Shown here: in pieces, positions 43,900-63,912 of the stretch | How the letters are laid out: each line of letters begins with the position of its first letter | How positions within the stretch are numbered: the first letter of the stretch is position 1 | Source of the DNA: Haliotis rufescens | Lineage: Eukaryota | Assembly (NCBI RefSeq): GCF_023055435.1 | Contig: NW_025963890.1 | Span: 27,342,001 to 27,406,000 of the forward strand | Reading direction: 5' to 3' | DNA length: 64,000 nt | The notes under the pieces: generated by a model | What the model saw: only the letters and a program-made list of their open reading frames with translations | The model's database searches: none | What the model was told of the DNA's origin: nothing | Translations under genes and position numbers: made by a program

Positions 43900-45055
43900 C
43901 CTGCGTATTGATACAACGTGTCTCAGTGTCACCAGATTGAAAACGCATCTAGCAATGTCACCATGTGTCTCCAGATTCGAGACACGTCACGTAACCTTGT
44001 GTCATAAGATGGGGCACACTAGTTCTTGTTATTATATGTCACAACAATCGGTTTTGCATTTCGTAATGGTATCATGTGTAATCAGATCCGTGACATAAAG
44101 TGACGTTAAATAAAGGAGACATTCGTTTGTTTTGTCAGAACAGACAGAATATCGTTTCTGTCTCGTCTTGAAAGAAACCATGTTTAACCTCATATTTCAG
44201 GACAATAAGTGAGCATATTTAATAAAAGTGTTTCCTGTAACAGCTGATCATGTGTTTACGTATATCACATACACCCGCATACCATATAATCTCTAACCAT
44301 GTGTCATCCGATCACTGAACTGCCACGTGTTGTTACCGTGTGTCATCAGTTCCTGTACTCATCTCGTCCTGTTGCCATGTGTCATATTATACACGGCATA
44401 TATCTTCTCGTTTGCATGTGTCACAAATTCAGGACAAAACCAGTTATGTTCCGCGTGTCATCATGTCAGCGCACACCTCGTGCGCCATCATGCCACAAAC
44501 CTCTCAAGGACACAACCTACCATCAGATCCAGAACACATATTGTCTTGTTGTCATGTGTCATCAGATCCAGAACACAGCTTGTCTTGTTGTCATGTGTCA
44601 TCAGATCCAGAACACATCTTGTCTTGTTGTCATGTGTCTTTAGATCCAGAACACATATTGTCTTGTTGTCATGTGTCATCAGATCCAGAACACATCTTGT
44701 CTTGTTGTCATGTGTCATCAGATCCAGAACACAGCTTGTCTTGTTGTCATGTGTCATCAGATCCAGAACACATTTTGTTTTGTTGTCATGTGTCATCAGA
44801 TCCAGAACACATCTTGTCTTGTTGCCATGTGTCATCAGATCCAGAACACATCTTGTCTTGTTGCCATGTGTCATCAGATCCAGAACACATCTTGTCTTGT
44901 TGCCATGTGTCTTTAGATTCGGAACGCATATTGCGTTGCTATCATGTGTCATCAGATCCAAAACACATCTTGCGTTGTTGTCATGTGAAATTAGATCCGG
45001 AACATATCTTGTGTTGTTGTCATGTGTCATTTATACAGAACACATCTTGTCTTGT

Positions 45056-45634
45056 GGAGGCACGGGTGGCCCAGTCGTCTAAGGCGCCGCGATTCGATGT
45101 GCAGATTTGCTCCCATTGGGCAGGCCAGAAACCTATGATTGTGGGTTCGAATCCCTGTTGGGGGCACGGGTGGCCCAGTCGTCTAAGGCGCCGCGATTCG
45201 CTGTGCAGAGTTGCGTCCCTTGGGCACGCCAGAAACCTATGATTGTGGGTTCGAATCCCGGTTCGCCCCGATTATGTTTCTAGGTTTGTCAGCACCATAC
45301 CCGTGCTCGTGGGTTTCACCGAAGTGGTAAACGTCTAAGACCTGCGTCACTTCGGGCTTTCCTCCCACATTAAGCTGACACGCCGCGATATAACTTGAAT
45401 ACTGTTAAAAGCGGCGTTAAACCCAACTCAATCACTCACTCACTCACTCGAATCCCTGTTCGCCCCGATTATGTTTCTAGGTTTGTCAGCACCATACCCG
45501 TGCCCGTGGGTTTCACCGAAGTGGTAAACGTCTGAGACCTGCATCACTTCGGGCTTTCCTCCCACATTAAGCTGACACGTCGTGATATAACTGGAATAAT
45601 GTTAAAAGCGGCGTTAAACCCAAATCACTCACTC
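45056..45634 (+). mobile_element. tRNA(Leu)-like-headed SINE, family C (outer copy), split by a second copy
   Basis: Head GGCACGGGTGGCCCAGTCGTCTAAGGCGCC...GTGGGTTCGAATCCC; tail (CACT)n. TSD CATCTTGTCTTGT at 45043-45055 and 45634-45646. Confidence 0.9.
45160..45447 (+). mobile_element. SINE family C (inner full-length copy) inserted at the B box of the outer copy
   Basis: Complete head-to-tail copy flanked by TCGAATCCCTGTT at 45147-45159 and 45448-45460. Confidence 0.9.
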
Positions 45635-47354
45635 ATCTTGTCTTGTTGTCATGTGCCATCAGTTCCAGAACACATCTTGTCTTGTCTTATGACATCAGTT
45701 CCAGAACACATCTTTTCTTGTTGTCATGTCTCATTAGATCCGGAACGCATCTTGTGTTGCTGCCATGTGTCAGCAGATCTAGACCACATCTTGTCTTGTT
45801 ATCATGCATCATCAGATGAAAGACACATGTCGAGATTTTGTCATTTGTCATTAGATTCGGAACGCATTTTGTCTGGTTGTCATGTGTCATTAGATCCTAG
45901 ACACATGTCATGTTGTCGTCATTTGTCATTAGACCAAGAATGCATTTTGTCTTGTTGTCATGTGTCATCAGTTCCGAGACACATCTCGTGTTGTTGTCAT
46001 GTGCCATCAGTTCCGGAACACAGCTCGTGTTGTTTTCATGTGCCATCAGTTCCGAGACACATCTTGTCTTGTTGTCATGTGCCATCAGTTCCGAGACACA
46101 TCTTGTCTTAGTCATGTGCCATCAGTTCCGGAACACATCTCGTGTTGTTGTCATGTGCCATCAGTTCCGAGACACATCTGTGTGTTGTTGTCATGTGCCA
46201 TCAGTTCCGAGACACATCTCGTGTTGTTGTCATGTGCCATCAGTTCCGAGACACATCTCGTGTTGTTGTCATGTGCCATCAGTTCCGAGACACATCTGTG
46301 TGTTGTTGTCATGTGCCATCAGTTCCGAGACACATCTCGTGTTGTTGTCATGTGCCATCAGTTCCGAGACACAGCTCGTGTTGTTGTCATGTGCCATCAG
46401 TTCCGAGACACATCTTGTGTTTTTGTCATGTGCCATCAGTTCTGAGACACATCTTGTGTTGTTGTCATGTGCCATCAGTTCCGAGACACATCTCGTGTTG
46501 TTGTCATGTGCCATCAGTTCCGAGACACAGCGCGTGTTGTTGTCATGTGCCATTAGTTCCGAGACACATCTCGTGTTGTTGTCATGTGCCATCAGTTCTG
46601 AGACACATCTCGTGTTGTTCTCATGTGCCATCAGTTCCGAGACACAGCTCGTGTTGTTGTCATGTGCCATCAGTTTCGAGACACATCTTGTTTGCATGTG
46701 TCTTAGATGTAGAACACATTTTGTCTTGTTGTCATTTGCCATCGTGTGTTGTTGTCTTGTGTCATCAGATACAGATCGCATCTTGTCTTGTTGTTATGTG
46801 CAATCTGTTCCGAGACACATCTTGTGTTTTTGTCATGTGCCATCAGTTCCGAGACACAGCTCGTGTTGTTGTCATGTGCCATCAGTTTCGAGACACATCT
46901 TGTTTCCATGTGTCATAGATGTAGAACACATTTTGTCTTGTTGTCATTTGCCATCGTGTGTTGTTGTCTTGTGTCATCAGATACAGATCGCATCTTGTCT
47001 TGTTGTTATGTGTAATCTGTTCCGAGACACATCTTGTCTTGTTGTTATGTGCAATCTGTTCCGAGACACATCTTGTCTTGTTGTTATGTGCAATCTGTTC
47101 CGAGAAACATCTTGTGTTTTTGTCATGTGCCATCAGTTCCGAGACACATCTTGTGTTGTTGTCATGTGCCATCAGTTCCGAGACACATCTTGTCTTGTTG
47201 TCATGTGCCATCAGTTCCGAGACACAGCTCGTGTTGTTGTCATGTGCCATCAGTTCCGAGACACATCTTGTCTTGTTGTCATGTGCCATCAGTTCGTGTC
47301 TCGTGTTGTTATCTGTCATTTCATCCGATACACGTCTCGTATTATGGTTATCTT

Positions 47355-47553
47355 TTTGTTTGGTTTGGTTGTTCAACGTCGCAATATTCCTGCTATATGA
47401 CGGCGGTCTGTAAATAATCGAGTCTGGACCAGACAATCAATTGGGATACGATGACATGCATCAACCAAGTCAGCGAGTCCGACCATCCGATCCCACTTGT
47501 CGTATCTTACGACAAGCATGGGTTGCTGAAGGCCTATTCTAACCCGAATCTTC
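47355..47553 (-). mobile_element. SINE family B inserted near the edge of the 39-bp satellite
   Basis: Reverse-complement homology to 13781-13958; tail TTTGTTTGGTTTGGTTG on the + strand. Confidence 0.8.
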
Positions 47554-50269
47554 GCATCTCGTGTTGTTGTCATGTGTAATCAGATCCAAGACACCTGTCG
47601 TGTTGTTGTCAAGGGCCATCAGATCCGGGACACATCCCATGTTGTTGTTATCTGTCATCAGATCCGAGACATATATCGTGTTGTTGTCGCCATGTGTCAT
47701 CAGATCCGCGACACATCTCGAGTTGGTTTCCATCAGATCTGGGACATGCCTTGGAACGATATTACGCGGGACATTACGCGGGATCTTACCACAGAATATA
47801 AAGCACGTGTGACGAGTCTGCTAATACGTATTACATTATGAGCGACATGAATCTGAGTACTCGTAATATGTCAAAAGATAGTATAATATCCATGTGGTTT
47901 TGAAAGAGTGATGAAAATTCTATTTCGGGAATTATACATTCGGTTGCTTAAATGGGAATGACTCCACGATATATTCGTTTTGATGTCGCTATGTCACCTT
48001 TCCCGAAACGCCATTCCACTTGTATGATTCTTACTATGTCTAACGTGATCAGTTCAGTTGATGGTGAAAGTGAAGTTGAGGCGCAGTAACTTGAAGTATG
48101 TGCGTTGTCGGTGTCTATTTTTAGTTTTGATCTCTTGCTGTCTGATCCTGTTCAGACATTCCACTCTGCTTTACCTCGTAGCCTTGTCTGTGACATAGCG
48201 AACCCAGTCTATTACATCATTTGCTATTTTGGACACATGCGTAACTACAAGCAGATGACCGCTACTAAGTATTACAACACTTCTACTTTAGTTCACAGCA
48301 GGTCTGTTTTAAAAATAAAAAAAGCACGTGTGTGTCATTCCCGAAGTATTCGTAACAATGTCTCAGACCACCCAGTATAAGATTAAAGAAAATATGATAA
48401 GAATTTTTTTTTAAATCCTACTTTGAACGCGTTACCGTTCAATACATTGTGACATCTGGCATGAGACGGCAACTTCAGAATATATTGTGTGCAGTCCTGT
48501 GTGCAGTGAAATTTGATGTGACTTTGGAAAAGTGAGGATATCCCCATGTTCAATCAGGGAATAAGAGTTCTATAATGTCTCAAGAGATTTTCTATAATAA
48601 ACTTTCAAAATGACATATTTGTTTTATTGTCGTGGTCTTTCCTCGCATTAATTAACTTCGCATTTAAATATCTAAAATGACTATGAACAATAGGCACGTG
48701 CAGCAATTGAAAGCCTGTATTTATCAAACAGTCTATAGATTTGATATTTCCAGTTATTACTTTGGGGGATCATGTAATGTCTACCAGCAACCATTACAGC
48801 ACAGATAAACATAAATTCACCAAAATATCTCAGCAAAACCAAAGGTTCATTGTATTTAACAGGTGCTTTCCTGTTAATGATTAATAAATATTCACCTTTG
48901 AACAACGTGTGTCTTTAAACGGATTTCAGAGCTATAGACAGGAGGTTATCTGCACCTTCCAAGCATTGGACAAGCATTGAAAACTACGCGTTGGTGTACC
49001 ACAAATCAAACACGCAAAGACACATATTTTATACAAACCAATTTTTGCGAAAATGCATAAAAAACTCTTGGTCTAACATACCTTACCATTAAAAGAAAGC
49101 TATGCTATACAGAAAAGCATTCACAGACACGAATAACGTAAAATACTGTAATAAAGTACAGGTTTAAAATTATGCAGCATCTTGTTTTCGCCAGTTTGTC
49201 CATCTTGTTGGGCTATTTATACATGTGCGTGCATATACTATTTGTTAACGCTCTCCCACCCTCGATTACCCAGTGTGAAATATTTTCTGATATCCTAGAT
49301 CCATCCGATACCAAAACTTCCTTCACAAACGATACCAAGACGTCACAATCTGCATCTCTCTTGTGACACACTCAGCACAGTTTTCTCTCGCTCATAAGCT
49401 TGAAATCAACAATTAATCTAACTGCATCTTCCGAACGAGAGCTCTCCATAGATCTTTTTTTTCAAATTTAAGCGAGCTCTGACAGATGTATCTTAAAGAA
49501 TCAAACTTTTGATAATACAGGAAAGGGGAGAGTCCTTTTGCAAAAACTCCCGTTCCGAATTGTTGTAATTTACACCGTACGCACAAGTCGACTCCGTGTC
49601 TAGTTCTGGTAATATCGCCGCTGGTTTTATTAATGACAATGTAATTTTGATTGGTTGTCTATGTTTAGCATCGTGTCACTCAAAACTAATGTATGTTGGC
49701 GAATGGATCCAGTATATTTATCATAACTGAACGGAGTTAAACTGGATGATCGGGGATGACGCTGTCTATAAAAAGACAAATTAAGTCATGAAATTAAAAT
49801 GTGTAAGTCTAGCATAAATAAAACAAGATAAAATCATATATGCGATTCCAAACTAAAACTCTGACATTCGCTTAAACTGAGAACCACCTTTTAATTGTCC
49901 ATGTTTATTATCTTCCTTTAAAGCATCATTAAAAAAATAATAATTTGCGTTAAAAACCAACAGCTGATAATACCTAAGTATATTTAAATGTTAAAGTGTA
50001 AGTATCGTGAAAAAAAATGATTGCGATTGCGAGAGAGAAAAAGTTAACAGAAAGTATTCAAATGTCCAAGAGAAAGTGTTGAAATCACACGCTCCGTAAT
50101 CGGATTCTGGGCGGGGCCTAAAGCTACCGGCGCACCAACGCTAAAACGAAGGCAACATGTGGGGATGACTCCAAGTCTGTGCATTTCTGAGATTTTGATT
50201 TTCGCACTTTTTGAATAAAACACGTGTTTTTACCAAAGGTCAGGCAGGTTGGACACGAAAAGTATAAAT

Positions 50270-50910
50270 GGTGAGAACATCGACGAGAACGTGTCACATT
50301 AACTACAGAAGAAAGGGAGAGAGCAAATGATATGGCTACTGTTGGCGCGACGCAATTCCATATTGCACGAACCTTTGGTTCCAACCGAGAGACAGTGGAT
50401 CGGCTTCTCAAGAGTTACAACCAGACTGGACACACTAAGTACAGGCCCAGGGTAGCAAACCACGCGTCACAACCCCCCTTTGAGGACGGCTATCTGCGTA
50501 CATTACATCTGCGCAACCGGTTACTGACAGTGACGTAATCGGCCATTGTATAGGCCCCTTCACAGTAGTCAGGAGACTACGAACAGCAGGTATTCGACCT
50601 TACCGACCCTTCCGTGAAATGACCTTGACCCGTCTCCATCGCCAGAGCAGACTCCGTTAGGTCATCACTGAACGACGTTGGCCAAGTCGTGATTTGCAGA
50701 GAGTACTGCTTACAAATGAAAGTTGATTCAACTTGTTCCATGCTGATGGTCGCCTGCATAGCTGCATTGTGGTGTCGCAATTGTTTGATTGCCTGTTCAT
50801 TGTCGGACATTAAAGTTATACTGGTTCTGCCTCATCATCTTTTTGCATCAATGAATGGCATTTTTATTTCATAACGTATTGAAGATTTAATGCTCCTTTT
50901 ATTTGGGACG
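50270..50910 (+). pseudogene. Degenerate Tc1 transposase fragment
   Basis: LTTEERERA..MATVGATQFHIARTFG...LKSYNQTG...EDGYLRTLHLRNRLLTVT aligns by eye with the N-terminal HTH region of the Tc1 transposase at 62105. Contains frameshifts. Confidence 0.75.
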
Positions 50911-51039
50911 ATGTTGTGCCATTTTCAGATACTGTGACTGGTAGTGGGGCGGTTGAGGCTAAAATTGTGCACTTTGGGTTAAAAGCACCAAATTTGGCAC
51001 ACTTATACATTGAACTATTCCGAACATCTCTGGATATGG

Positions 51040-51765
51040 ATCCACATCAGCAGAGCCTCCTGGTAGTAGAAGATGGCTGCCAACATGGCTGAAATCTCTA
51101 ATGATATCAATATATAGTCAATATATCATATCTATCTGATCTATTTAAACATATATCCATTGCAATGCACGCGGAATGAATTGCAGCAGAGCTGTATAAA
51201 ATTAAAATATAGTTTGCAGCGCCCCCTGGTGGTAGAATATCAAAGATGGCCTCCAGCATGGCTGAAATCTCTAATGATATCAATATATAGTCAATATATC
51301 ATACTTATCTTATCCATTTAATATATATCCATTGTAATGCACGCGGAATAGATTGCAACAGAGCTTTATAAATTAAAATATATTTTGCAGCGCACCCTGG
51401 TGGTAGAAAATACAGCATGGCTGAAATCTCTAATGATATCAATCTATACTCAAAATATCATTGTTGTCTGGCCAATTTATACAAATTATCACTGTAATGT
51501 ATTTAGGAGTAATCACAACAATCATGCATATAATTTAAATCCAGTATGCAGCACCCCCTGGTGGTGATGAAAGTCGAAAATGGGCGCCAACATGGTTGAA
51601 ATCTCTAATGACTTTAATATATACTCATTATATCATAATTATCTGGCCAATTCATACACAGTACAATTATCACAGTATCTTTTTCAGGATCAATTGCAAC
51701 AATGCTTTATATAATTCTGGTATGCGGCGCCCCCTGGTGACGAAATCCAAGATGGCCTCCAATAT
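51040..51765. repeat. ~160-175-bp subterminal tandem repeats of the Academ element
   Basis: Recurring TGCAGCGCCCCCTGGTGG...A.ATGGC...CATGGCTGAAATCTCTAATGA at ~51047, 51215, 51386, 51547 and 51723. Confidence 0.85.
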
Positions 51766-52116
51766 GTGATAGTTTTCAGAAATTGCCTATTTGGACTTAG
51801 GATAAGTTGATAAGTTTGGACATGATGAAACATTTTTAAATGACATTGTATCAATTTCTATGTATTTTGTATGATCTATTCGTATGAGGGCTCGGCATTA
51901 TTTTATAAATTGTCTACTGAGAAATATTGCACCTAGTTTATTTAGTATGTCGTGTTCTAGAGAACAATTTAATGAAGGCATCTTTTCCTGAATGAAGTGA
52001 ACTGTATCCATAATATTAGATCACCCCAAAATCAATCATAATCATCTGGGAATGGATTCATATCTTAAAAAACAGGAATGTACATTGACATTATTGCCAT
52101 GACCCTGTGATATCAA

Positions 52117-52427
52117 GGGACACGGGTGGCCCAGTCGTCTAAGGCGCCGCGATTCGTTGTGTAGAGTTGCGTCCCTTGAGCACGCCAGAAACCTATGATT
52201 GTGGGTTCGGATCCCGATTCGCCCCGATTATGTGTCTTGGTTTGTCAGCACCATACCCGTGCTCGTGAGTTTCACCGAAGTGGTAAACGTCTGAAACCTG
52301 CATCACTTCGGGCATTCCTCCCACATTAAGCTGACACGCCATGATATAACTGGAATACTGTTAAATGCGGCGTTAAACCCAACTCACTCACTCATCTTGT
52401 CTTATTGTCATGTGCCATTAGATCCGG
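52117..52427 (+). mobile_element. SINE family C copy with a 3'-appended monomer of the 39-bp satellite
   Basis: Full SINE at 52117-52393, then ATCTTGTCTTATTGTCATGTGCCATTAGATCCGG. Flanking direct repeat (TGA)TATCAA at 52108-52116 and 52428-52442. Confidence 0.88.
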
Positions 52428-54116
52428 TATCAATGATATCAACTTACTTCCTACTTAAGTATGACCAGGAATATCGGTTCAATGTATGTGTTTACGGTTC
52501 TATAATTCAGTTTCAATGAACGCTTTCCTTCAAAGTATCACATAGCACTGTACCTTCCTAATAAACCAGTGAGAACGAGAGAATGTCCGTTTAGTCTTGT
52601 GTGTCACTAATCCACCGTAACAATAATCGCGGTACAGTGGTGCCTGTGTTCTGCTGTAAGAGGGACATATCAGTGAAATGCAAGCCAAGTGATGCTGCAC
52701 ACTTTGAGAAATCTGCTTTTTGAATTGCACGCACCAGGCCCAACATGCAAAGTTCTTGTTCAAGAACGAGGGTCCAGTAGTGAAACAAGGGCTGAGAGGC
52801 TTACTTCGGTGCACACCAGTTTCTGAAAGTGTCTTCTGTATTCGCTTCGGTTTCCTTATATTGTACATATGCCTGATGTTGTAGCAGGGTGGTACACATG
52901 ATGAAGGAAGGAATTCCAGGAGCACAGATTGCAGTTTTTCATCTACTTCTTTCGGGACAGTCCTTAAAGCAACTATTTCAATATGCAAATCTACCAAACA
53001 TGATAAGGAACTTCATCATATAATTCAGGACAGTTCCACTGGATTGTTTTAGCAATTGTATATAATGGTTCATCCAAGGCAAACACATGCATCTGACCAG
53101 GATAGAAATGCTCAATACCCTTTTTTACCACATTAATTGAATTCTGTATCATAGCAACAGACTGTTCGCGTTCTAGAACATTGGCATATGGGCACTTGTT
53201 ATTGGAGGTTATGTTTGTCTTGTTTTCCCAGTCCTACCTTCATGTGATATAAGCAGTATTACTCATGGTCAGGCATTGTGTTAACACTATCTATATCTTG
53301 TGTGAAAGGTCCTTTTACATAAGGCACATAATTACCCATCCTGCTAAACCAGGATGGGGGTTAATTAATATATACTGTGGACTGTTTGGAAATGTTTTTT
53401 TCTTGTTTGTGTTCTTTCTTCAGTCAAAAGAACAACATGTGATGTTCCCTCCCCTTCAGCTGTTGGACGATGCTGCAATAGTGAAATGCTGGTACCATGA
53501 AGTGGATAGATTGCTGTTGTAGAGCAAGGATTATGATAGATGTTATCTTTTGAGAATGTTGGTGGGCATACCATACCGTCGTCTTCATAAACACCACAAA
53601 CTGTGCTATATCTGTTGAAATACACCAGACAGTCATGCTAAATGCACAATCCCATATTGTGAAATGTGTCAACAAGATCACGTTTTCTTGTTTAATACCA
53701 AGTAGACTGGGATTTGTATTTCACAGTCTCAGTGGTGTCTTTGTATTGATGTGCTGGTGCACCCAGGTTTTACCCTTTGAAGATGTTCTGAGATAGTTTG
53801 GGATGCTTGAGGAGTGTTTTCTTTTTATACCTGGTCTTTTAAATTTTACGCTGACTAGAGTTTTCAAAGAGGCATGTTTCAGTGCTGGTCCAATATCTTT
53901 ATCAAATTACAACGTGACCTTTTTGCCTTGATTGTAATCTCTCAGAATTGATGGCAAGATTCGATTCCAGTCTTGTATTGTGTTCATGCAGTCTAAAACA
54001 TTCCCCAGATCTGCCTTACGGAATACAGATCTTGTTTCAAATGAATAAATTTTAGTAGTAAAGTTTAAACATTCAGTAAAGCATTACTTGGAATTGTTTT
54101 AAGCCAAATTTGATTA

Positions 54117-54947
54117 AAACAAGTATTTGTCACAGAGTGACGAAATATCCCCCGCCTGTACACCATAGTACCAAATATGAAGACAATCCAGCGATTAGTT
54201 CTTGAGATATTGTGGCAACACAGTTTTCCAACTCCAAAAACAGATTTGCCTGCTGTGACCTTGAAAATGGGATCAAGGTCACCAAATCTGACAGGTGTAT
54301 GCGGTGTCTGTATATACACTATAGTTCCAAATATGAAGACAATCCAGCGATTAGTTCTTGAGATATCGCGGCAACACCGTTTTCTAACTCCAAAAGCAGA
54401 TTTGCCTGCTGTGACCTTGACAATGGGGTCAAGGTCACCAAAACCGACTGGTGTCTGCGGTGTCTGTATATACACCATAGTTCCAAATATGAAGACAATC
54501 CAGTGTTTAGTTCTTGAGATATCGCGGCAACACCGTTTTCCAACTCCAAAAGCAGATTTGCCTGCTGTGACCTTTAAAATGGGATCAAGGTCACCAAAAC
54601 CGACTGGTGTCTGCGGAGTCTGTATATACACCATAGTTCCAAATATGAAGACAATCCAGTGTTTAGTTCTTGAGATATCGCGGCAACACCGTTTTCCAAC
54701 TCTAAAAGCAGATTTGTCTGCTGTGACCTTGAAAATGGGATCAAGGTCACCAAAACCGACTGGTGTCTGCGGAGTCTGTATATACACCATAGTTCCAAAT
54801 ATGAAGACAATCCAGTGTTTAGTTCTTGAGATATCGCGGCAACAAAGAGGTGGGACGTACGGACGGACGTACGGACGTACGGACGTACGTACGGACGGTC
54901 GTGAATACTATATCCCCCGCTTCGCGCTTTCGCGCGGCGGGGGATAA
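54117..54947. mobile_element. Helentron-associated non-autonomous element (HINE; DTC84/pearl-like architecture) with 156-bp tandem core
   Basis: 5' ACAAG...AATATCCCCCGCC; 156-bp units at 54159, 54315, 54471, 54627 and 54783; (GGAC/GTAC)n microsatellite at 54853-54900; 3' hairpin TATCCCCCGC...GCGGGGGATA. Nested in the Academ element. Confidence 0.85.
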
Positions 54948-55279
54948 TGATTGCAATGAACAAATGATACCGCGCTGCAGATAAGATTTGAATTATATAC
55001 ATCGTTGTTGCAATTAATTTTGCATAAATTAATAGAATTGACAAATTAATTATTATCTATTAAATATAAATTGACATCATAATGACAAGATATTTTAACC
55101 ATTGGCGGCCATTTTGGATTTTATGCCACCAGGTAGTGCTGCTGAGGTTGATGCATATCCAGAAATGGTCGGAATGGTTCAATGTATAAGTGTGCCAAGT
55201 TTGGTGCTTTTAACCCAAAGTGCTATATTTTGACTAAATCCAGCCTTAACCGCCCACGATGGCCTAGAGCGCCATCCTG

Positions 55280-56539: not shown

Positions 56540-57295
56540 TACTGAACCGCAAAACCCCCAAGTCACACTGCATAAAAAGTTGTCATTTAAATATCTGGGT
56601 AATTTTTTGTCAAAGTTTCTAAAGTTTAACATTACCTTGTCCGGAAATTGATGATAATTGATGAAATTGATGAAAGTTGATGATAAAGAAAAGCAACAGA
56701 TGACAATAAAACAGATCGCCCAAACGCATCACGGCAACGGCCATGGTAAACCGATGCACGTGAGTTCCGTGAAAATTGAATGCGTTCCCCCATTTCTTGC
56801 CATATAAAAATCCATCCAGATCGGATAACATTCATTCGTTATTGAATCGCTACCACATGCCAAGATTGACAAGAAATCAGCGACACCAAGCCCTTGGACG
56901 ATTGCAAGGCAAATAGCCAATGCATTACAAGTCCACGTAAGGACCATATACAGGCTCCAGCAACGGTACCAGACCACCAACACTACAGATGACCGACCAC
57001 GTAGTGGAAGACCAAGGATCACCACCCGACGTCAGGATTGTCAGATTTTGCGACAACATCATCAAGATCGCTTTGTTACTGCAGCGGAAACTGCTCGACA
57101 GACCATGGGGACAAACTAGTGTGGACACCGTGCGTCGTCGATTGACGAGCAGCCATTGTCACAGGCCACACCGAGGACCCATTCTGACGCCGGGGCGGTC
57201 TTCAGTGGGCAACACAGCACCAGCATTGGCGCCACCAGCAGTGGAGAAGAGTCCTCTTCTCAGATGAGAGCCGTTACTGTATCTCAACAGCAGAT

Positions 57296-57336
<41 letters not shown>

Positions 57337-58043
57337 TGGCGACGCCGTGGAGAACGTTATTCGGATGCTTGTGTTGTTGAGAGAGACTCGTGGGGTGGTC
57401 CGAGCATCATTGTGTGGGGTGGAATTGGCCTTGCACAAAGGGTCGGCCCTGTGGTCTTCCAGAACATCGGCCCAGGGAGAGGCAATGGTGTCACAGCAGC
57501 TCGGTACATTGAGACCACACGCCATACCTCATTTGGCACGTCGCCGCAACCACGAGGTTCAGCATGATAACGCCAGAGCATTAAGAGACTTCCTCCAGCA
57601 GAATTGCATCAGAACCATGCAGTGGCCTGCCCTCAGTCTCGATTTAAATCCCATTGAGCACCTGTGGGACGTGATTCAAAGACGGCTGAATGACGTCCGA
57701 CCAAGGCCGACAACTGCAGCTGAACTGCGTCAGGCGTTTCTCAGAGTGTGGTCTCAAGTGCCTATGGCCTTCATCAACCGCCTCGTCCATTCCATGTATC
57801 GACGTTGCAAGGCAGTAAGCAATGCACATGGCGGACACACGAGATACTGACTTGTGATGCCATTTTCTCCTAGACAAGTGTTGTGTTTCACTTTAAGAAC
57901 ATTTGACACTTTAATTTCAACCTTGATGATCAGTTTTGCAAAGTGTTATCTTTTTAATATGTCTTAAAGTATGTTTACAGTGTTTGGACAAATAAGGTTT
58001 CTCATATATCTATCCATGGTGACATTTATTTTGCGGTTCAATA
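56540..58043 (+). mobile_element. Full-length but decayed Tc1 element
   Basis: TIRs TA|TACTGAACCGCAAAA and TTTTGCGGTTCAATA|TA. The transposase runs from ATG ~56857 (MPRLTRNQRHQALGRL) through FSDESR, QHDNAR and WPALSLDLNPIEHLW to GGHTRY* at 57850, with multiple frameshifts. Confidence 0.9.
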
Positions 58044-58180: not shown

Positions 58181-58344
58181 TATGTAATATTGTGTTAAAT
58201 GAATCTGATTAGACACATACATATTCATGTGTGTACTAGGCAACTTTCATCGTTAAGTACATGTAATTCACACATAATTTATGACAGAGGGTCAGAGACA
58301 GTTCTTTTTTATATTGACTGAAGACCAACGATTTATGTACAAAG

Positions 58345-60640
58345 CTGGTCTTTAGGCCCTGATAGATAAGCATGTACGTATTCGCGCCGTCTTTGTTGTT
58401 GTTGTTCCGACAGTTGTCACCAAATGTCCTGGACTAGCATGCCTCAGAGCATGGAAGGCGTGGTTTCCTACAGCTACAACGTTTGCTGGTACATCCCCTC
58501 GTGCACCCACATGATATGATCTCACTACAACTGGATGGGGCAGGAGACAGAGAGATGAACCTTGGCACAAGTTGGCCGCCCAGGTACATCCATCCCATTT
58601 CATTCAGTGGAGGCAGACTTGGAATAGAATCATTGCGCCTTTGGTTCCAGACAGCATCTGAGGTCGATGGAAGAGTTTCTAAGGTACGACCTATACAAAA
58701 CTACTTGACTCGTGCTTTGTTGCATGTGTCTACATGCAACTCGGTCATGCGATACAACTTACAGATGAACTTCGCTGATGACATTGCGATGTTTTCTGAG
58801 AAACGACCAGTGCCGAGGCCGATCTGACCATGTCCTTGTGTAGATCTGTCATGCTTTCTCCTTGCTATGACGATTCAACTGAGATTTAGAGTTACATCCT
58901 GTCATTGCATGAAAGGCAACTATTGTGATTACTTGGTCAGCATGAAGCGACCTGTGAACTTCATACACCGGAACGTACTTTGAAGTGACAGCTTTCATGT
59001 AGAGATTTTTACATGCCATTCTGTCATAGTGTGCTAGAAGTAAAAGAATCACAGCTGTGACACGAAATGGTATGACTATCGCCTCCATATGGGCTTGGAT
59101 GCATGCAGGATTAGCCGAGTGTCCGCCTCTTCGTGATCAGCACTAAGTTATCAGACGACTTGACTGTGGTCGCGTCTGTAAATCCACCTCCTGTAATCAC
59201 TATCAGTTTATCTGCGCGGCTGTTTCCAATGAGATGATCAGAGAGAAGTAAAGCGACATCAGCTTTATTTTCCTCGAGTGCCAGGAAGTTTGACCAGTCA
59301 GATGGGAGAGGGACGAACTTACTCTCTAATTGACGAGGCACTAGTCGGTTTCACTTCTTGCGTTTGGTCCTTGTGCGTTTGATTCCTCATCCAATCAAAC
59401 CAATCAAATAATATGTCAATTCTCTGGTATTTTGCTCCCATGTTGAACAAATTGTCAACAAAAGTGTTGGCATAGTTTCCAAATGTTCTCGCACCTTGTG
59501 ACTTCCCAAGTGCCATGACCAGTAAGTGTTTGACCATCAAAGAGCAGACAGCTGGATGATATAAGTGAAAAACTTGGGGGGATTTGCAGACATTGTGTAT
59601 GTTTGCTAACACTGACTGGTTGGTAGAAAGAAGAGTTCCAATGAGTGTTGGCCAAAGGTAGTGGGACGGACATGAGTTAATGTTGTAGGATGTCATTCTC
59701 CCCTCCTTTGAAAGATGTTTCTGTCAATTTGCTTCCCCTTGACATTTTGCACAACTGCATATAGTGACACAAATGTCTTGTTCTTTGGAATTGCGGTCCT
59801 GAGAGCAACAGGTCGATATATGTGGTCTTAGATGGACGTGTGTTCACGAATGCTTTCATTTGCGCATGTTCTATGCTTTCTTTACCAAACAGAGATTCTT
59901 GGATAGGAGGAGTAACCACATCTTCGTTAATCATGTTTATGAGTGGTGTGTGATGATTGTCCTGAGGTTATAGACAGTGTCCATCTACTCAGTACAGATG
60001 CTATCCTAACGATGCCAACTAGCCTCCGCTCTTCTTTCCAGTTGCGTTTAGCCACTCAGAACTTTGATCTGCAGAAACCTGATTGAAGTACGATCGGAGC
60101 TTTTAACAACAAAGTTGTCTTGTCATTAAGGGCTTCCAGTGGGAGGAAAGACATTTCAGGCCAGAATACAGTTCCCCACATAACAGAAGTTCACTGAATG
60201 TCCGCAAGTAAAGAAGTATGGCCCTATACCTTTTCAGGCATAAAGGTACTGATCCCAAGATCAATCACGCAGCGCCCTCGTGAAGCATAGCAAGATGTTC
60301 ACCATATACATGACGTCCCACCAGAATGTAGCATTCGGACCATTCTACTACTACATTAACCATAATGTCATTCGAATTTTCATGTCTAAAAACATAGGTA
60401 CAAAAGCCCATTTCATTCAAGTTTCAAACTTATATGGTTGCATTGATATGCGAATGAATACGTTTCAACGTTTCATTGGCGGCCATTTTTTTTAATTTTG
60501 TGGTATTATCGTTCAAATTTCGGCCTGGCATACAGCACATTTGTATTTATCAGCCCTCAATACACTTATAAAGCTTGTATGCTATAAATTAACAGAAATT
60601 GCCTCCAGATTTATCAATTTCTCAAATCCGACCAAGTCTA
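58345..60640 (-). mobile_element. Second AcademX relic (transposase C-terminal part, XPG/FEN1-like nuclease, Cys-rich CXC tail)
   Basis: Minus-strand motifs FNQVSADQSSEWLNATGK, LPSDWSNFLALEENKAD, DHEEADTRLILHA, AFHAMTGCNSKS...KEKA and C-terminal ISCGC..GC....CSCRK..LPC...C. Probable terminus ...CCAAGTCTA at 60640; the other terminus was not seen. Confidence 0.82.
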
Positions 60641-61842: not shown

Positions 61843-63333
61843 AACTAATGTCCAAAAGAAACGATACCACACATTTTTCTAAATATTTTAATATGAAGAG
61901 TTATTTTCGTCTGAAAAGGTACTTTTGCGTATCCTACGTTCCAAACCAAACGTATTCGGTCGATAAAACCGGGAACATTTGATCAATTGAGAAAAAAGCG
62001 TGCAATTTGCCCAAATGACGTTCCGAAATGCACGTGCATATCTTCTGTATAAAACTGCTGACCCGACACGTTGGGATCACAGCAACAAAAAGCGCACAAA
62101 AGAAATGCCACGTTTGACAGCGATTGAGAGAGAGAGAGCCGTAGGAATGCTCCAACAGGGAGCTACGCACCGCGACGTCGCCGGAAGGTTAGGATGCGCG
62201 CGCATAACCGTCACCAGGTTAATGCAGCGGTTGCGTCAAACAGGTCGGACAGCAGACAGGCCGAGAACCGGGAGACCACGGGTGACCACGCCTATTGAAG
62301 ACCGCCACATCCGGGTACTTCACCTTCGGAACCGCTCCGTAACGGCGACGTTAACGGCACGGACGGCACTGGGACACGTGATAAGTCGACAAACCGTGTC
62401 CAGGAGACTGCGGGCACATGGTATCCGAGCACGTCGCCCCTACCGCGGAGCGTTCCTGACACCTCAACACCGACTCAACAGACGGATATGGGCCAGGCGA
62501 CTTCGACGGTGGCAACGGTGGAACTGGGCACGTGTCATGTTTTCTGACGAAAGCAGATTTTGCATCTTCAGGAACGACGGCCGGCAGCGTGTGTACCGAA
62601 GAGTAGGTGAACGTTTGGCACCGAACTGCATCCATCAAATCAGGCCATATGGAGGCAGAGGTTTAATGGTTTGGGGTGGAATCTGCGGTGACGTCAAAAC
62701 GAGACTCGTCGTTATTCGAGGAAACCCGAATGCGCAGCGTTATTGTGATGACATCTTACAACCAGTTGTGGTGCCATTCATCCAATAACAGCCTAATGGT
62801 ATCATTTTCCAGCACGATAATGCGAGGCCTCACACGGCAAGGTTGACCCAGAACTTCCTAGCAAACGCCAACATTCACGTTTTACCATGGCCGGCATGTT
62901 CAGCGGACATGAACCAAATCGAACACATGTGGGACATTATCGGCCGCAAAGTCAGGAATCGCCCTGTGCCTCCAGTTAACCTCCAGGAATTGGAACAATG
63001 CCTCCTCCATGAATGGCAACGCATCCCACCCAACGTCATCAGACGTCTGACGTCATCAGCCCGTAGACGTGTACTAGCGTGTATTGACGCTCACGGTGGA
63101 CATACCCGGTACTAACGTGACTTTGAGACTAATCAACTGTGTTCAAATGAAATTTTCATTTTGGACCCCCCGCGTCTTTACAAGTCTCTCCTCATGATTG
63201 TAAAGGATTGATTACAATGAATACTGTGAAAACAGTACTCACAAGTCATATACCAATTTGAAATGTCTGTATCGTTTAGTTTTTTTGTAATGTCCTTTCA
63301 AACACGTGGTATCGTTTCTTTTGGACATTAGTT
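61843..63333 (+). mobile_element. Young full-length Tc1 (DD34E) element
   Basis: Perfect 28-bp TIRs AACTAATGTCCAAAAGAAACGATACCAC, flanked by TA at 61841-61842 and 63334-63335. Confidence 0.95.
62105..63115 (+). pseudogene. Tc1 DD34E transposase (336 codons) with a single premature stop
   Basis: MPRLTAIERERAVGML..., a GRPR AT-hook-like linker, FSDESRF and QHDNARPH, with 34 residues to NQIEH. An in-frame TAA at 62786-62788 separates the two supplied ORFs, and the frame is conserved across it. Confidence 0.92.
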
Positions 63334-63618: not shown

Positions 63619-63912
63619 GGGGCACGGATGGCCTAGTGGTCTAAGGCGCCGCGATTCGTGTGCAGAGTTGCGTCCCTTGGGCACGCCAGATTGTGGGTTC
63701 GAATCCCGGTTCGCCCCGATTATGTTTCTAGGTTTGTCAGCACCATACCCGTGCTCGTGGGTTCACCGAAGTGGTAAACGTCTGAGACCTGCATAACTTC
63801 GGGCTTTCCTCCAACATTAAGCTGACACGCCGTGATATAACTGGAATACTGTTAAAAACGGCGTTAAACCCTACTCACTCACTCACTCACTCACTCACTC
63901 ATTCACTCACTC
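63619..63912 (+). mobile_element. SINE family C, full-length, long (CACT)n tail
   Basis: Head GGCACGGATGGCCTAGTGGTCTAAGGCGCC resembles tRNA-Leu A-box context; B box GGTTCGAATCCC. TSD TCAAA(T/G)AGGTTCA at 63606-63618 and 63911-63923. Confidence 0.9.

Follow-up and report, generated by a model that had tools for sequence, protein, structure and literature searches.

A satellite unit behind a SINE of Haliotis rufescens may have been captured from a neighbouring SINE by DNA template switching

Behind one copy of a short interspersed element (SINE) in the genome of Haliotis rufescens stand 34 bp of satellite DNA, and the question is how they came to be there. The stretch analysed here, referred to as the window, is 64,000 nucleotides long (assembly GCF_023055435.1, contig NW_025963890.1, positions 27,342,001 to 27,406,000 of the forward strand). 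The SINE occupies 52117-52393 on the plus strand, inside a decayed DNA transposon, and is followed on the same strand by the satellite piece ATCTTGTCTTATTGTCATGTGCCATTAGATCCGG at 52394-52427. The original prediction, made from the sequence alone, was that a SINE at 45056-45634, embedded in a satellite array, had acted as a source element for two daughters, with RNA read-through exporting the satellite. It is held here, with moderate confidence, that the SINE at 52117 is an independent insertion and that a DNA template switch to the adjacent SINE, 6.8 kb upstream, afterwards altered its 3' end.

The local origin of the piece is observed. It is identical at 30 of 34 positions to the satellite directly downstream of the SINE that ends at 45634 (source stretch 45635-45668), in equal register and behind a tail of equal length. 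The proposed genome-wide search for SINE and monomer junctions gave two matches to the tail and satellite pattern in this register in the 1.33-Gb genome, at 45634 and 52393, both in the window. These are in the same orientation and 6,759 bp apart. It had been claimed correctly that the 3' end of the 52117 SINE received a copy of satellite from the array nearby, with 45634 as the donor junction. The possibility that the monomer is part of the consensus tail of the family is rejected by there being two junction matches and by the 101 out of 124 copies that run directly from tail to target. A larger DNA duplication extending beyond the flanking repeat is also rejected, as homology on the upstream side does not go past the SINE and transposon sequence lies on both flanks.

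The 39-bp satellite array (44521-47725, plus strand) has main blocks at 44521-45055 and 45634-47295, with decayed copies up to 47725. It is confined to this locus, where all 32 matches of the monomer pattern and all 10 matches of the DNA search are located; none was found in the flanking 400 kb, both sides together. The first three monomers behind the SINE, the source of the captured piece, are at 45635-45743 on the plus strand. The first run of four T residues (T4) in this flank begins at 45713, which is +79 from the end of the SINE, neither the SINE nor the 78 bp that follow it containing a T4; the captured piece stops at +34. Three of its four differences from the present first monomer are variants found in the array, and a prefix of monomer 1 joined to a suffix of monomer 3 reproduces the piece with one mismatch, which 1 of 2000 random trials equalled. 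Such a mosaic monomer could be due either to a slip inside the array during copying or to later reshuffling of the array. Three more long tandem arrays lie in series directly upstream of the 39-bp array, at 15517-43737, made up of 197 copies of a 56-bp unit, 99 copies of a 37-bp unit and 271 copies of a 30-bp unit.

Could the satellite have come to stand in register behind the tail through unrelated filler, or through an assembly error? Priming by the tail favours a few registers, as 4 of the 39 positions in the monomer have 3 nt, and 10 have 2 nt, of microhomology with the tail. Against this, both the register and the tail length match, and the left flank of the SINE is transposon rather than satellite. 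A contig from sample X1 spans 52371-52462 with no differences, including the same 3' junction, and a contig from sample X2 spans the 5' junction of the 52117 copy; either may be the source sample of the assembly. The junction, being carried by these contigs, is not an assembly error, so the artefact half of this explanation is largely refuted, and as a whole we consider it very improbable. The present allele was seen in X1 and no allele predating the capture was found among the matches listed, which are dominated by contigs containing SINEs. For organisms B and C there was no orthologous junction among the matches listed, which is not evidence of absence.

The donor was not the single source copy that had been proposed. 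An outer, older SINE, carrying 12 private changes across its two parts, is interrupted in its B-box by a full-length inner, younger SINE. The 5' part of the outer copy, with its A- and B-boxes, is at 45056-45159 and its 3' part, with the ACTC tail that forms the donor junction, is at 45450-45634, with the inner copy, which has five changes from the majority, between them at 45160-45449 (all plus strand). The target duplication of the outer copy, CATCTTGTCTTGT, is at 45043-45055 (plus strand) and 45634-45646, and the inner copy has a 13-bp duplication of its own, TCGAATCCCTGTT, at 45147-45159 and 45448-45460. Both copies of TCGAATCCCTGTT hold a private T of the outer SINE, at a position where the inner SINE itself has G, and the inner copy shares none of the outer private changes. 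On the sequence, the copy at 45160 is an ordinary nested, younger and independent insertion rather than a daughter of the 45056 copy. The outer SINE, the progenitor of the prediction, is thus now interrupted in its B-box.

The bodies of the SINEs are likewise unshared. The 52117 copy has 13 private changes, none in common with the outer or inner copy, and carries none of the 12 outer-private or 5 inner-private changes, with the same outcome on 121 aligned rows. It differs from the outer copy at 25 of 274 positions and from the inner copy at 19 of 279, with 13 differences from the nearest dispersed copies. No private change is common to the outer, inner and 52117 copies, and the proposal that one copy gave rise to two daughters is therefore not upheld. 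By way of control, a true local duplication of a whole copy elsewhere (L213) does share private changes. The outer and 52117 copies are alike in age, having 12 and 13 private changes.

The variants taken as signs of a local lineage were read correctly, GGGTGGCCCAGTCGTCT and AAACCTAT being present in the copies at 45056, 45160 and 52117 and absent from that at 63619. They mark a common dispersed subfamily instead. The A-box variant is found in 80 of 87 copies, and AAACCTAT in 71 of 87, in a sample from contig C1, and GGGTGGCCCAGTCGTCTAAGGCGCCGCG has 11,525 exact matches in the genome, on many contigs, which rejects a private local subfamily. The variants common to the three window copies are, from these alignments, the majority state and the 63619 copy is the odd one. 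The latter (63619-63912, plus strand) is an ordinary SINE with the rarer head variant GGATGGCCTAGTGGTCT, lacking the 9-bp AAACCTAT block and having its own 13-bp target duplication with one mismatch; the sampled stretches, mostly selected for containing the common type of head, yielded 137 heads of that type and 0 of the rarer one.

The SINE is of the tRNA-derived type: it lacks an internal T4 and has A and B boxes, a 3' stem-loop, a tandem tail, target duplications and high copy number; its head has no ARAGORN or Rfam match. In 101 of 124 full-length copies the ACTC tail runs directly into the target duplication. Perfect duplications number 58; 56 of them are 11-17 bp long, in 53 there is an overlap of 1-5 nt with the tail, and 42 start with TC or CT. 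The first 2-3 bases of the family's duplications nearly always carry the ACTC pattern of the tail onward, which is a clear sign of annealing of the tail to the target. SINEs are often found inside or directly against other SINEs, as in the window at 45147-45460 and in stretches L106, L142, L135, L009, L119 and L202. At least two copies are present in 16 of 80 sampled 8-kb stretches, a few of which were placed to cover two listed matches. The window has four copies within 19 kb and the flanking 400 kb two, of at least 84%.

Against this habit, the right junction at 52117 is odd. The direct repeat TGATATCAA (52108 and 52434) encloses SINE and monomer, as had been noted; TATCAA is not part of it, being extra bases (52428-52433) ahead of the right copy (52434-52442, plus strand). 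The repeat is 9 bp long, starts with TG, overlaps neither tail nor satellite and is preceded by these six target-like bases, which are a repeat of the target. The left copy of TGATATCAA (52108-52116, plus strand) is the end of a 12-mer, CTGTGATATCAA, spanning 52105-52116, which would match a typical target duplication of the family, judging from its sequence. This suggests that a normal insertion was made and that its right junction was rewritten later. Nineteen paralogous transposon sites were compared; 18 are uninterrupted, with neither insert nor tandem, two of them having small deletions; the remaining one failed to align. The tandem of TATCAA and TGATATCAA is absent from these empty sites.

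The export of satellite by read-through can be considered at this point. RNA polymerase III (Pol III) would have transcribed a young outer SINE into the satellite and the RNA would have been retrotransposed 6.8 kb away. The 52117 copy is indeed full-length with a precise 5' end, is in the same orientation and has an identical tail length (chance approximately 0.07), the repeat encloses SINE and monomer, and the transcript would meet no T4 before +79. The ages are similar, the divergence of the monomer, on a plain reading, equals that of the bodies, and there is a local cluster of copies. A human case, AluSx-WaluSat, has been proposed as such an event in the accessible text of 10.1101/2021.07.12.451456. 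The RNA route is disfavoured, however, by the absence of the outer copy's private changes, which only an early event escapes, by the atypical 9-bp repeat with six extra bases and no priming microhomology, and by the piece ending at +34 rather than at a T4. In addition, the inner copy is no daughter, in most sampled copies the tail abuts the duplication, and the copies checked included no distant transduction. In humans most transductions are between chromosomes, as far as the same source is available, and a random integration within 7 kb would be expected only about once in 100,000. Copying of satellite thus stands from the read-through claim, and its passage through RNA, to which the structure of a second case described below is also opposed, is unlikely.

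This second case, L113 (G000:C1:11914400-11922400, 4037-3572 and 1305-905, minus strand), comes from an unselected sample on another contig, C1. Here a SINE carries the 3' flank of a neighbour, behind which its own 3' end resumes. The recipient, at about G000:C1:11917950-11918450, has its own 5' body, then the rare terminal variant of the donor, the donor tail and 117 bp of donor flank with one difference. It returns through a CGAT microhomology to a second, normal SINE 3' end of 42 nt, followed by the tail and target duplication that belong to the recipient. The donor is 2,731 bp away in the same orientation. The recipient has the CTAAA variant of the donor beside the tail, but none of six donor changes further upstream. 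CTAAA is rare, with 77 occurrences genome-wide, and is not a subfamily marker, there being no shared changes among 17 copies that bear it (15 from 20 sampled stretches). The captured flank exists in these two near-identical copies, 11 other matches being partial and at most 88%. It ends at +117, at a run of three T residues (T3), and the first T4 is at +200. L113 is the clearest example of the capture of a neighbour's flank and has the structure of a DNA template switch.

In a third stretch, L124 (G000:C1:13064900-13072900, near 3750-3500, minus strand), a tandem duplication of 156 bp, with ATATAT as filler, adjoins a long (GT)n tract. The duplicated unit consists of the last 46 nt of the SINE, the tail and 95 bp of flank, and its re-entry point is at most 4 nt from that of L113. 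This is an in-place tandem duplication, most simply made at the DNA level.

A wider survey took in 161 stretches (1.50 Mb) with 368 SINE-type 3' ends. Of the 721 neighbour pairs that these form, nine share 3' flank: one is the window pair, one L113 and one L124, and the other six rows are ordinary local duplications (L213, L237, L085, L091 twice and L097). L135/137/138 is a multi-kb duplication. The duplication in L213 (G000:C1:15322000-15331900) is at least 1.9 kb long, with copies 5.3 kb apart and a left breakpoint a few bases upstream of the target duplication of the SINE. Twelve close pairs of rare tail variants, taken from the first 100 places listed for such variants and from the 77 of CTAAA, included no capture, eight being segmental or tandem duplications and four sharing the SINE only. 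L130, the sole candidate tested genome-wide as a distant transduction, has no source there for its unique part; for the remaining copies that lack a repeat next to them the comparison was with the sampled stretches, and no distant transduction was found among them. In the unselected C1 sample 1 of 119 ends is a capture, or approximately 1 in 120 copies.

L113 and L124 also bear on a one-step alternative, chimeric integration, in which SINE RNA is reverse-transcribed at the new site and the growing strand switches to the nearby outer junction, as DNA or as nascent read-through RNA. One event would give the precise 5' end, the unshared private changes and the enclosing repeat. The second 3' piece of L113 (42 nt) and the re-entry of L124 (46 nt) both start a little way 5' of the 3' stem-loop (z -3.3), the expected binding site of the partner reverse transcriptase, and a T3 run closes each of the two flank pieces. 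Template switching from one SINE RNA to another is an accepted idea in the available text of PMC4824008. On the other side, two switches are required, and L124, lying in place beside (GT)n, is most simply a DNA-level event. The target duplication of L113 has 2 mismatches in 16 whereas the captured flank has 1 in 117, which suggests that the capture followed the insertion. Chimeric integration is accordingly regarded as doubtful.

A DNA template switch is favoured on account of the unshared private changes, the atypical target repeat, the end at +34 rather than at a T4 and the structure of L113. We infer the break, the pathway and the prior existence of the recipient at 52117. The 52117 SINE would have had a broken or stalled 3' end, at its ACTC tail or close to it, which paired with the homologous tail of the outer SINE. 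Extension past the end of the homology, into the satellite, would have copied the tail and 34 bases. End joining of a polymerase-theta-like kind may then have restored the link to the recipient within its first right-hand target duplication, probably CTGTGATATCAA, with the loss of three bases and the addition of TATCAA as a templated repeat. The same process, leaving a cleaner signature, would account for L113.

Several points weigh against this interpretation. The window case lacks a second SINE 3' end, the decisive signature of L113, and there is no microhomology at the joint between monomer and TATCAA. The four differences in the 34 bp of flank are about what the divergence of the bodies predicts (3.1 expected), so that a single old copying of SINE and flank together fits too; the sharing of 0 of 12 changes only needs that copying to have taken place in about the first fifth of the life of the outer copy. 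A flank younger than the bodies is weakly supported (p 0.06 for L113, 0.18 for the window and 0.06 combined, post hoc). The 52117 copy is also without the change that the outer copy has 1 nt before the tail, and the switch must therefore have been made within approximately 10 nt of the tail, or before that change arose. The density of copies, four in 19 kb against two in the flanking 400 kb, mildly favours local spawning. Later reshuffling of the array can yield a mosaic monomer as well as a slip during copying can, and the T3 end of L113 and its return just 5' of the 3' stem-loop also fit a jump by reverse transcriptase. Finally, the captures in hand are two, one being the case through which the question was ascertained.

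A bolder reading is locus-tethered copying, in which the reverse transcriptase used by the SINE would take up nascent or read-through RNA close to the source and insert SINE and flank within a few kb. We give this little credence. If true, it would seed satellite units and unique DNA locally, and the 6.8-kb and 2.7-kb cases would be its products.

The transposon in which the 52117 SINE lies (50942-55259, minus strand) had been named an Academ element. It is a decayed DNA transposon with long terminal inverted repeats (arms 50947-51255 and 54972-55255) and AcademX-like ends; its left end is TAG, which we take to be a mark of Academ, a 3-bp TGG repeat flanks it on both sides, and it has coding remnants on the minus strand. 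AcademX target duplications are 3-4 bp long (PMC10045372). The name stands as far as the ends are concerned, but no transposase family, such as the Academ transposase with its XPG-like nuclease, can be assigned, the remnant reading frames having no Pfam family and no Atlas match. Between 51050 and 51770 there are four to five subterminal repeats of 160-170 bp, each with a GCGCCCCCTGGTGG core that presumably resembles a CTCF motif. An insert at 54159-54947 consists of a 156-bp tandem repeat (4.4 copies), a GGAC microsatellite and a terminal hairpin, and is presumed to be a non-autonomous Helitron-type element. Around the host are three Tc1/mariner-type transposase remnants, at 50275-50760, at 56829-57850, split by an (AG)n run, and at 61991-63115, nearly complete with one frame break. 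A second decayed element at 58200-60600 has minus-strand coding remnants that resemble those of the host by eye.

The repair route proposed for 52117 is known from experiments. Tremblay, Jasin and Chartrand (2000) reportedly found that a break in a long interspersed element (LINE) in mammalian cells was repaired by conversion with other LINE copies, and Belmaaza and Chartrand (1994) are said to have described one-sided invasion. In one-sided invasion of repeat copies, extension can run beyond the homology. The likeness is that a repeat copy is the donor for a broken repeat copy; the difference is that the LINE case is experimental and in mammalian cells. Fork stalling and template switching and microhomology-mediated break-induced replication (FoSTeS/MMBIR), one-sided or long-tract conversion with end joining (PMC4888836) and synthesis-dependent microhomology-mediated end joining (SD-MMEJ; PMC7407515) resemble it, in the accessible parts of these sources, in the nearby homologous or microhomologous template and the short synthesis. 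The same parts also describe a return to the original molecule through microhomology, as in L113, and a short templated repeat at the joint, to which TATCAA at 52117 may correspond. Switch distances of 7-32 kb are cited for E. coli in the available portion of PMC4888836. Unlike in those reviews, the present case is in an invertebrate germline genome, with 280 bp of SINE homology and a product resembling a transduction, and the pathway would be deduced from it.

A SINE with a satellite monomer also has precedent. In the AluSx-WaluSat case, as given in the accessible text of 10.1101/2021.07.12.451456, SINE and monomer lie inside a target duplication and the array later grew there. It differs in being interchromosomal, with many copies and arrays of up to thousands of units, from the single monomer in a single copy, with no expansion, seen here. 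L1 and SVA 3' transductions are common (PMC12350158, PMC13756887, as far as their available text goes), and share with 52117 an element with another copy's downstream flank inside a direct repeat. Unlike them, 52117 is a Pol III element without shared private changes or a second tail, with an atypical repeat and a donor within kilobases. For Alu, 386 3' events were called in the available part of 10.1101/2021.07.12.451456, whereas the available part of 10.1101/2024.04.29.591526 gives no confirmed Pol III transduction among 118,489 AluY, with parent and offspring belonging to different subfamilies in 231 of 700 calls in this stricter survey. Mollusc tRNA-derived SINEs of the HalSINE1 group, as described in the accessible text of PMC4824008 and PMC4758252, are likened to the present family by description only: a tRNA-like head with A and B boxes, a LINE-type 3' domain that several local SINE families have in common, and a short tandem tail. 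A 66-bp Meta central domain is the mark of MetaSINE / HalSINE1.

Transduced flanks are the standard barcode by which source retroelements are named, and transduction of Pol III SINEs is itself disputed. The window case and L113 would be look-alikes, in which a SINE carries the flank of a neighbour from which it does not descend, and such junctions can mimic true transductions; no prior description of this mimicry was found in the literature searched, supplements not being covered. Capture would also be a route by which one satellite unit enters a new site within a transposon, here with no expansion or spread. At approximately 1 in 120 copies, such events would be expected to number in the region of a hundred genome-wide, which may be enough to test whether their origin is in RNA or in DNA.

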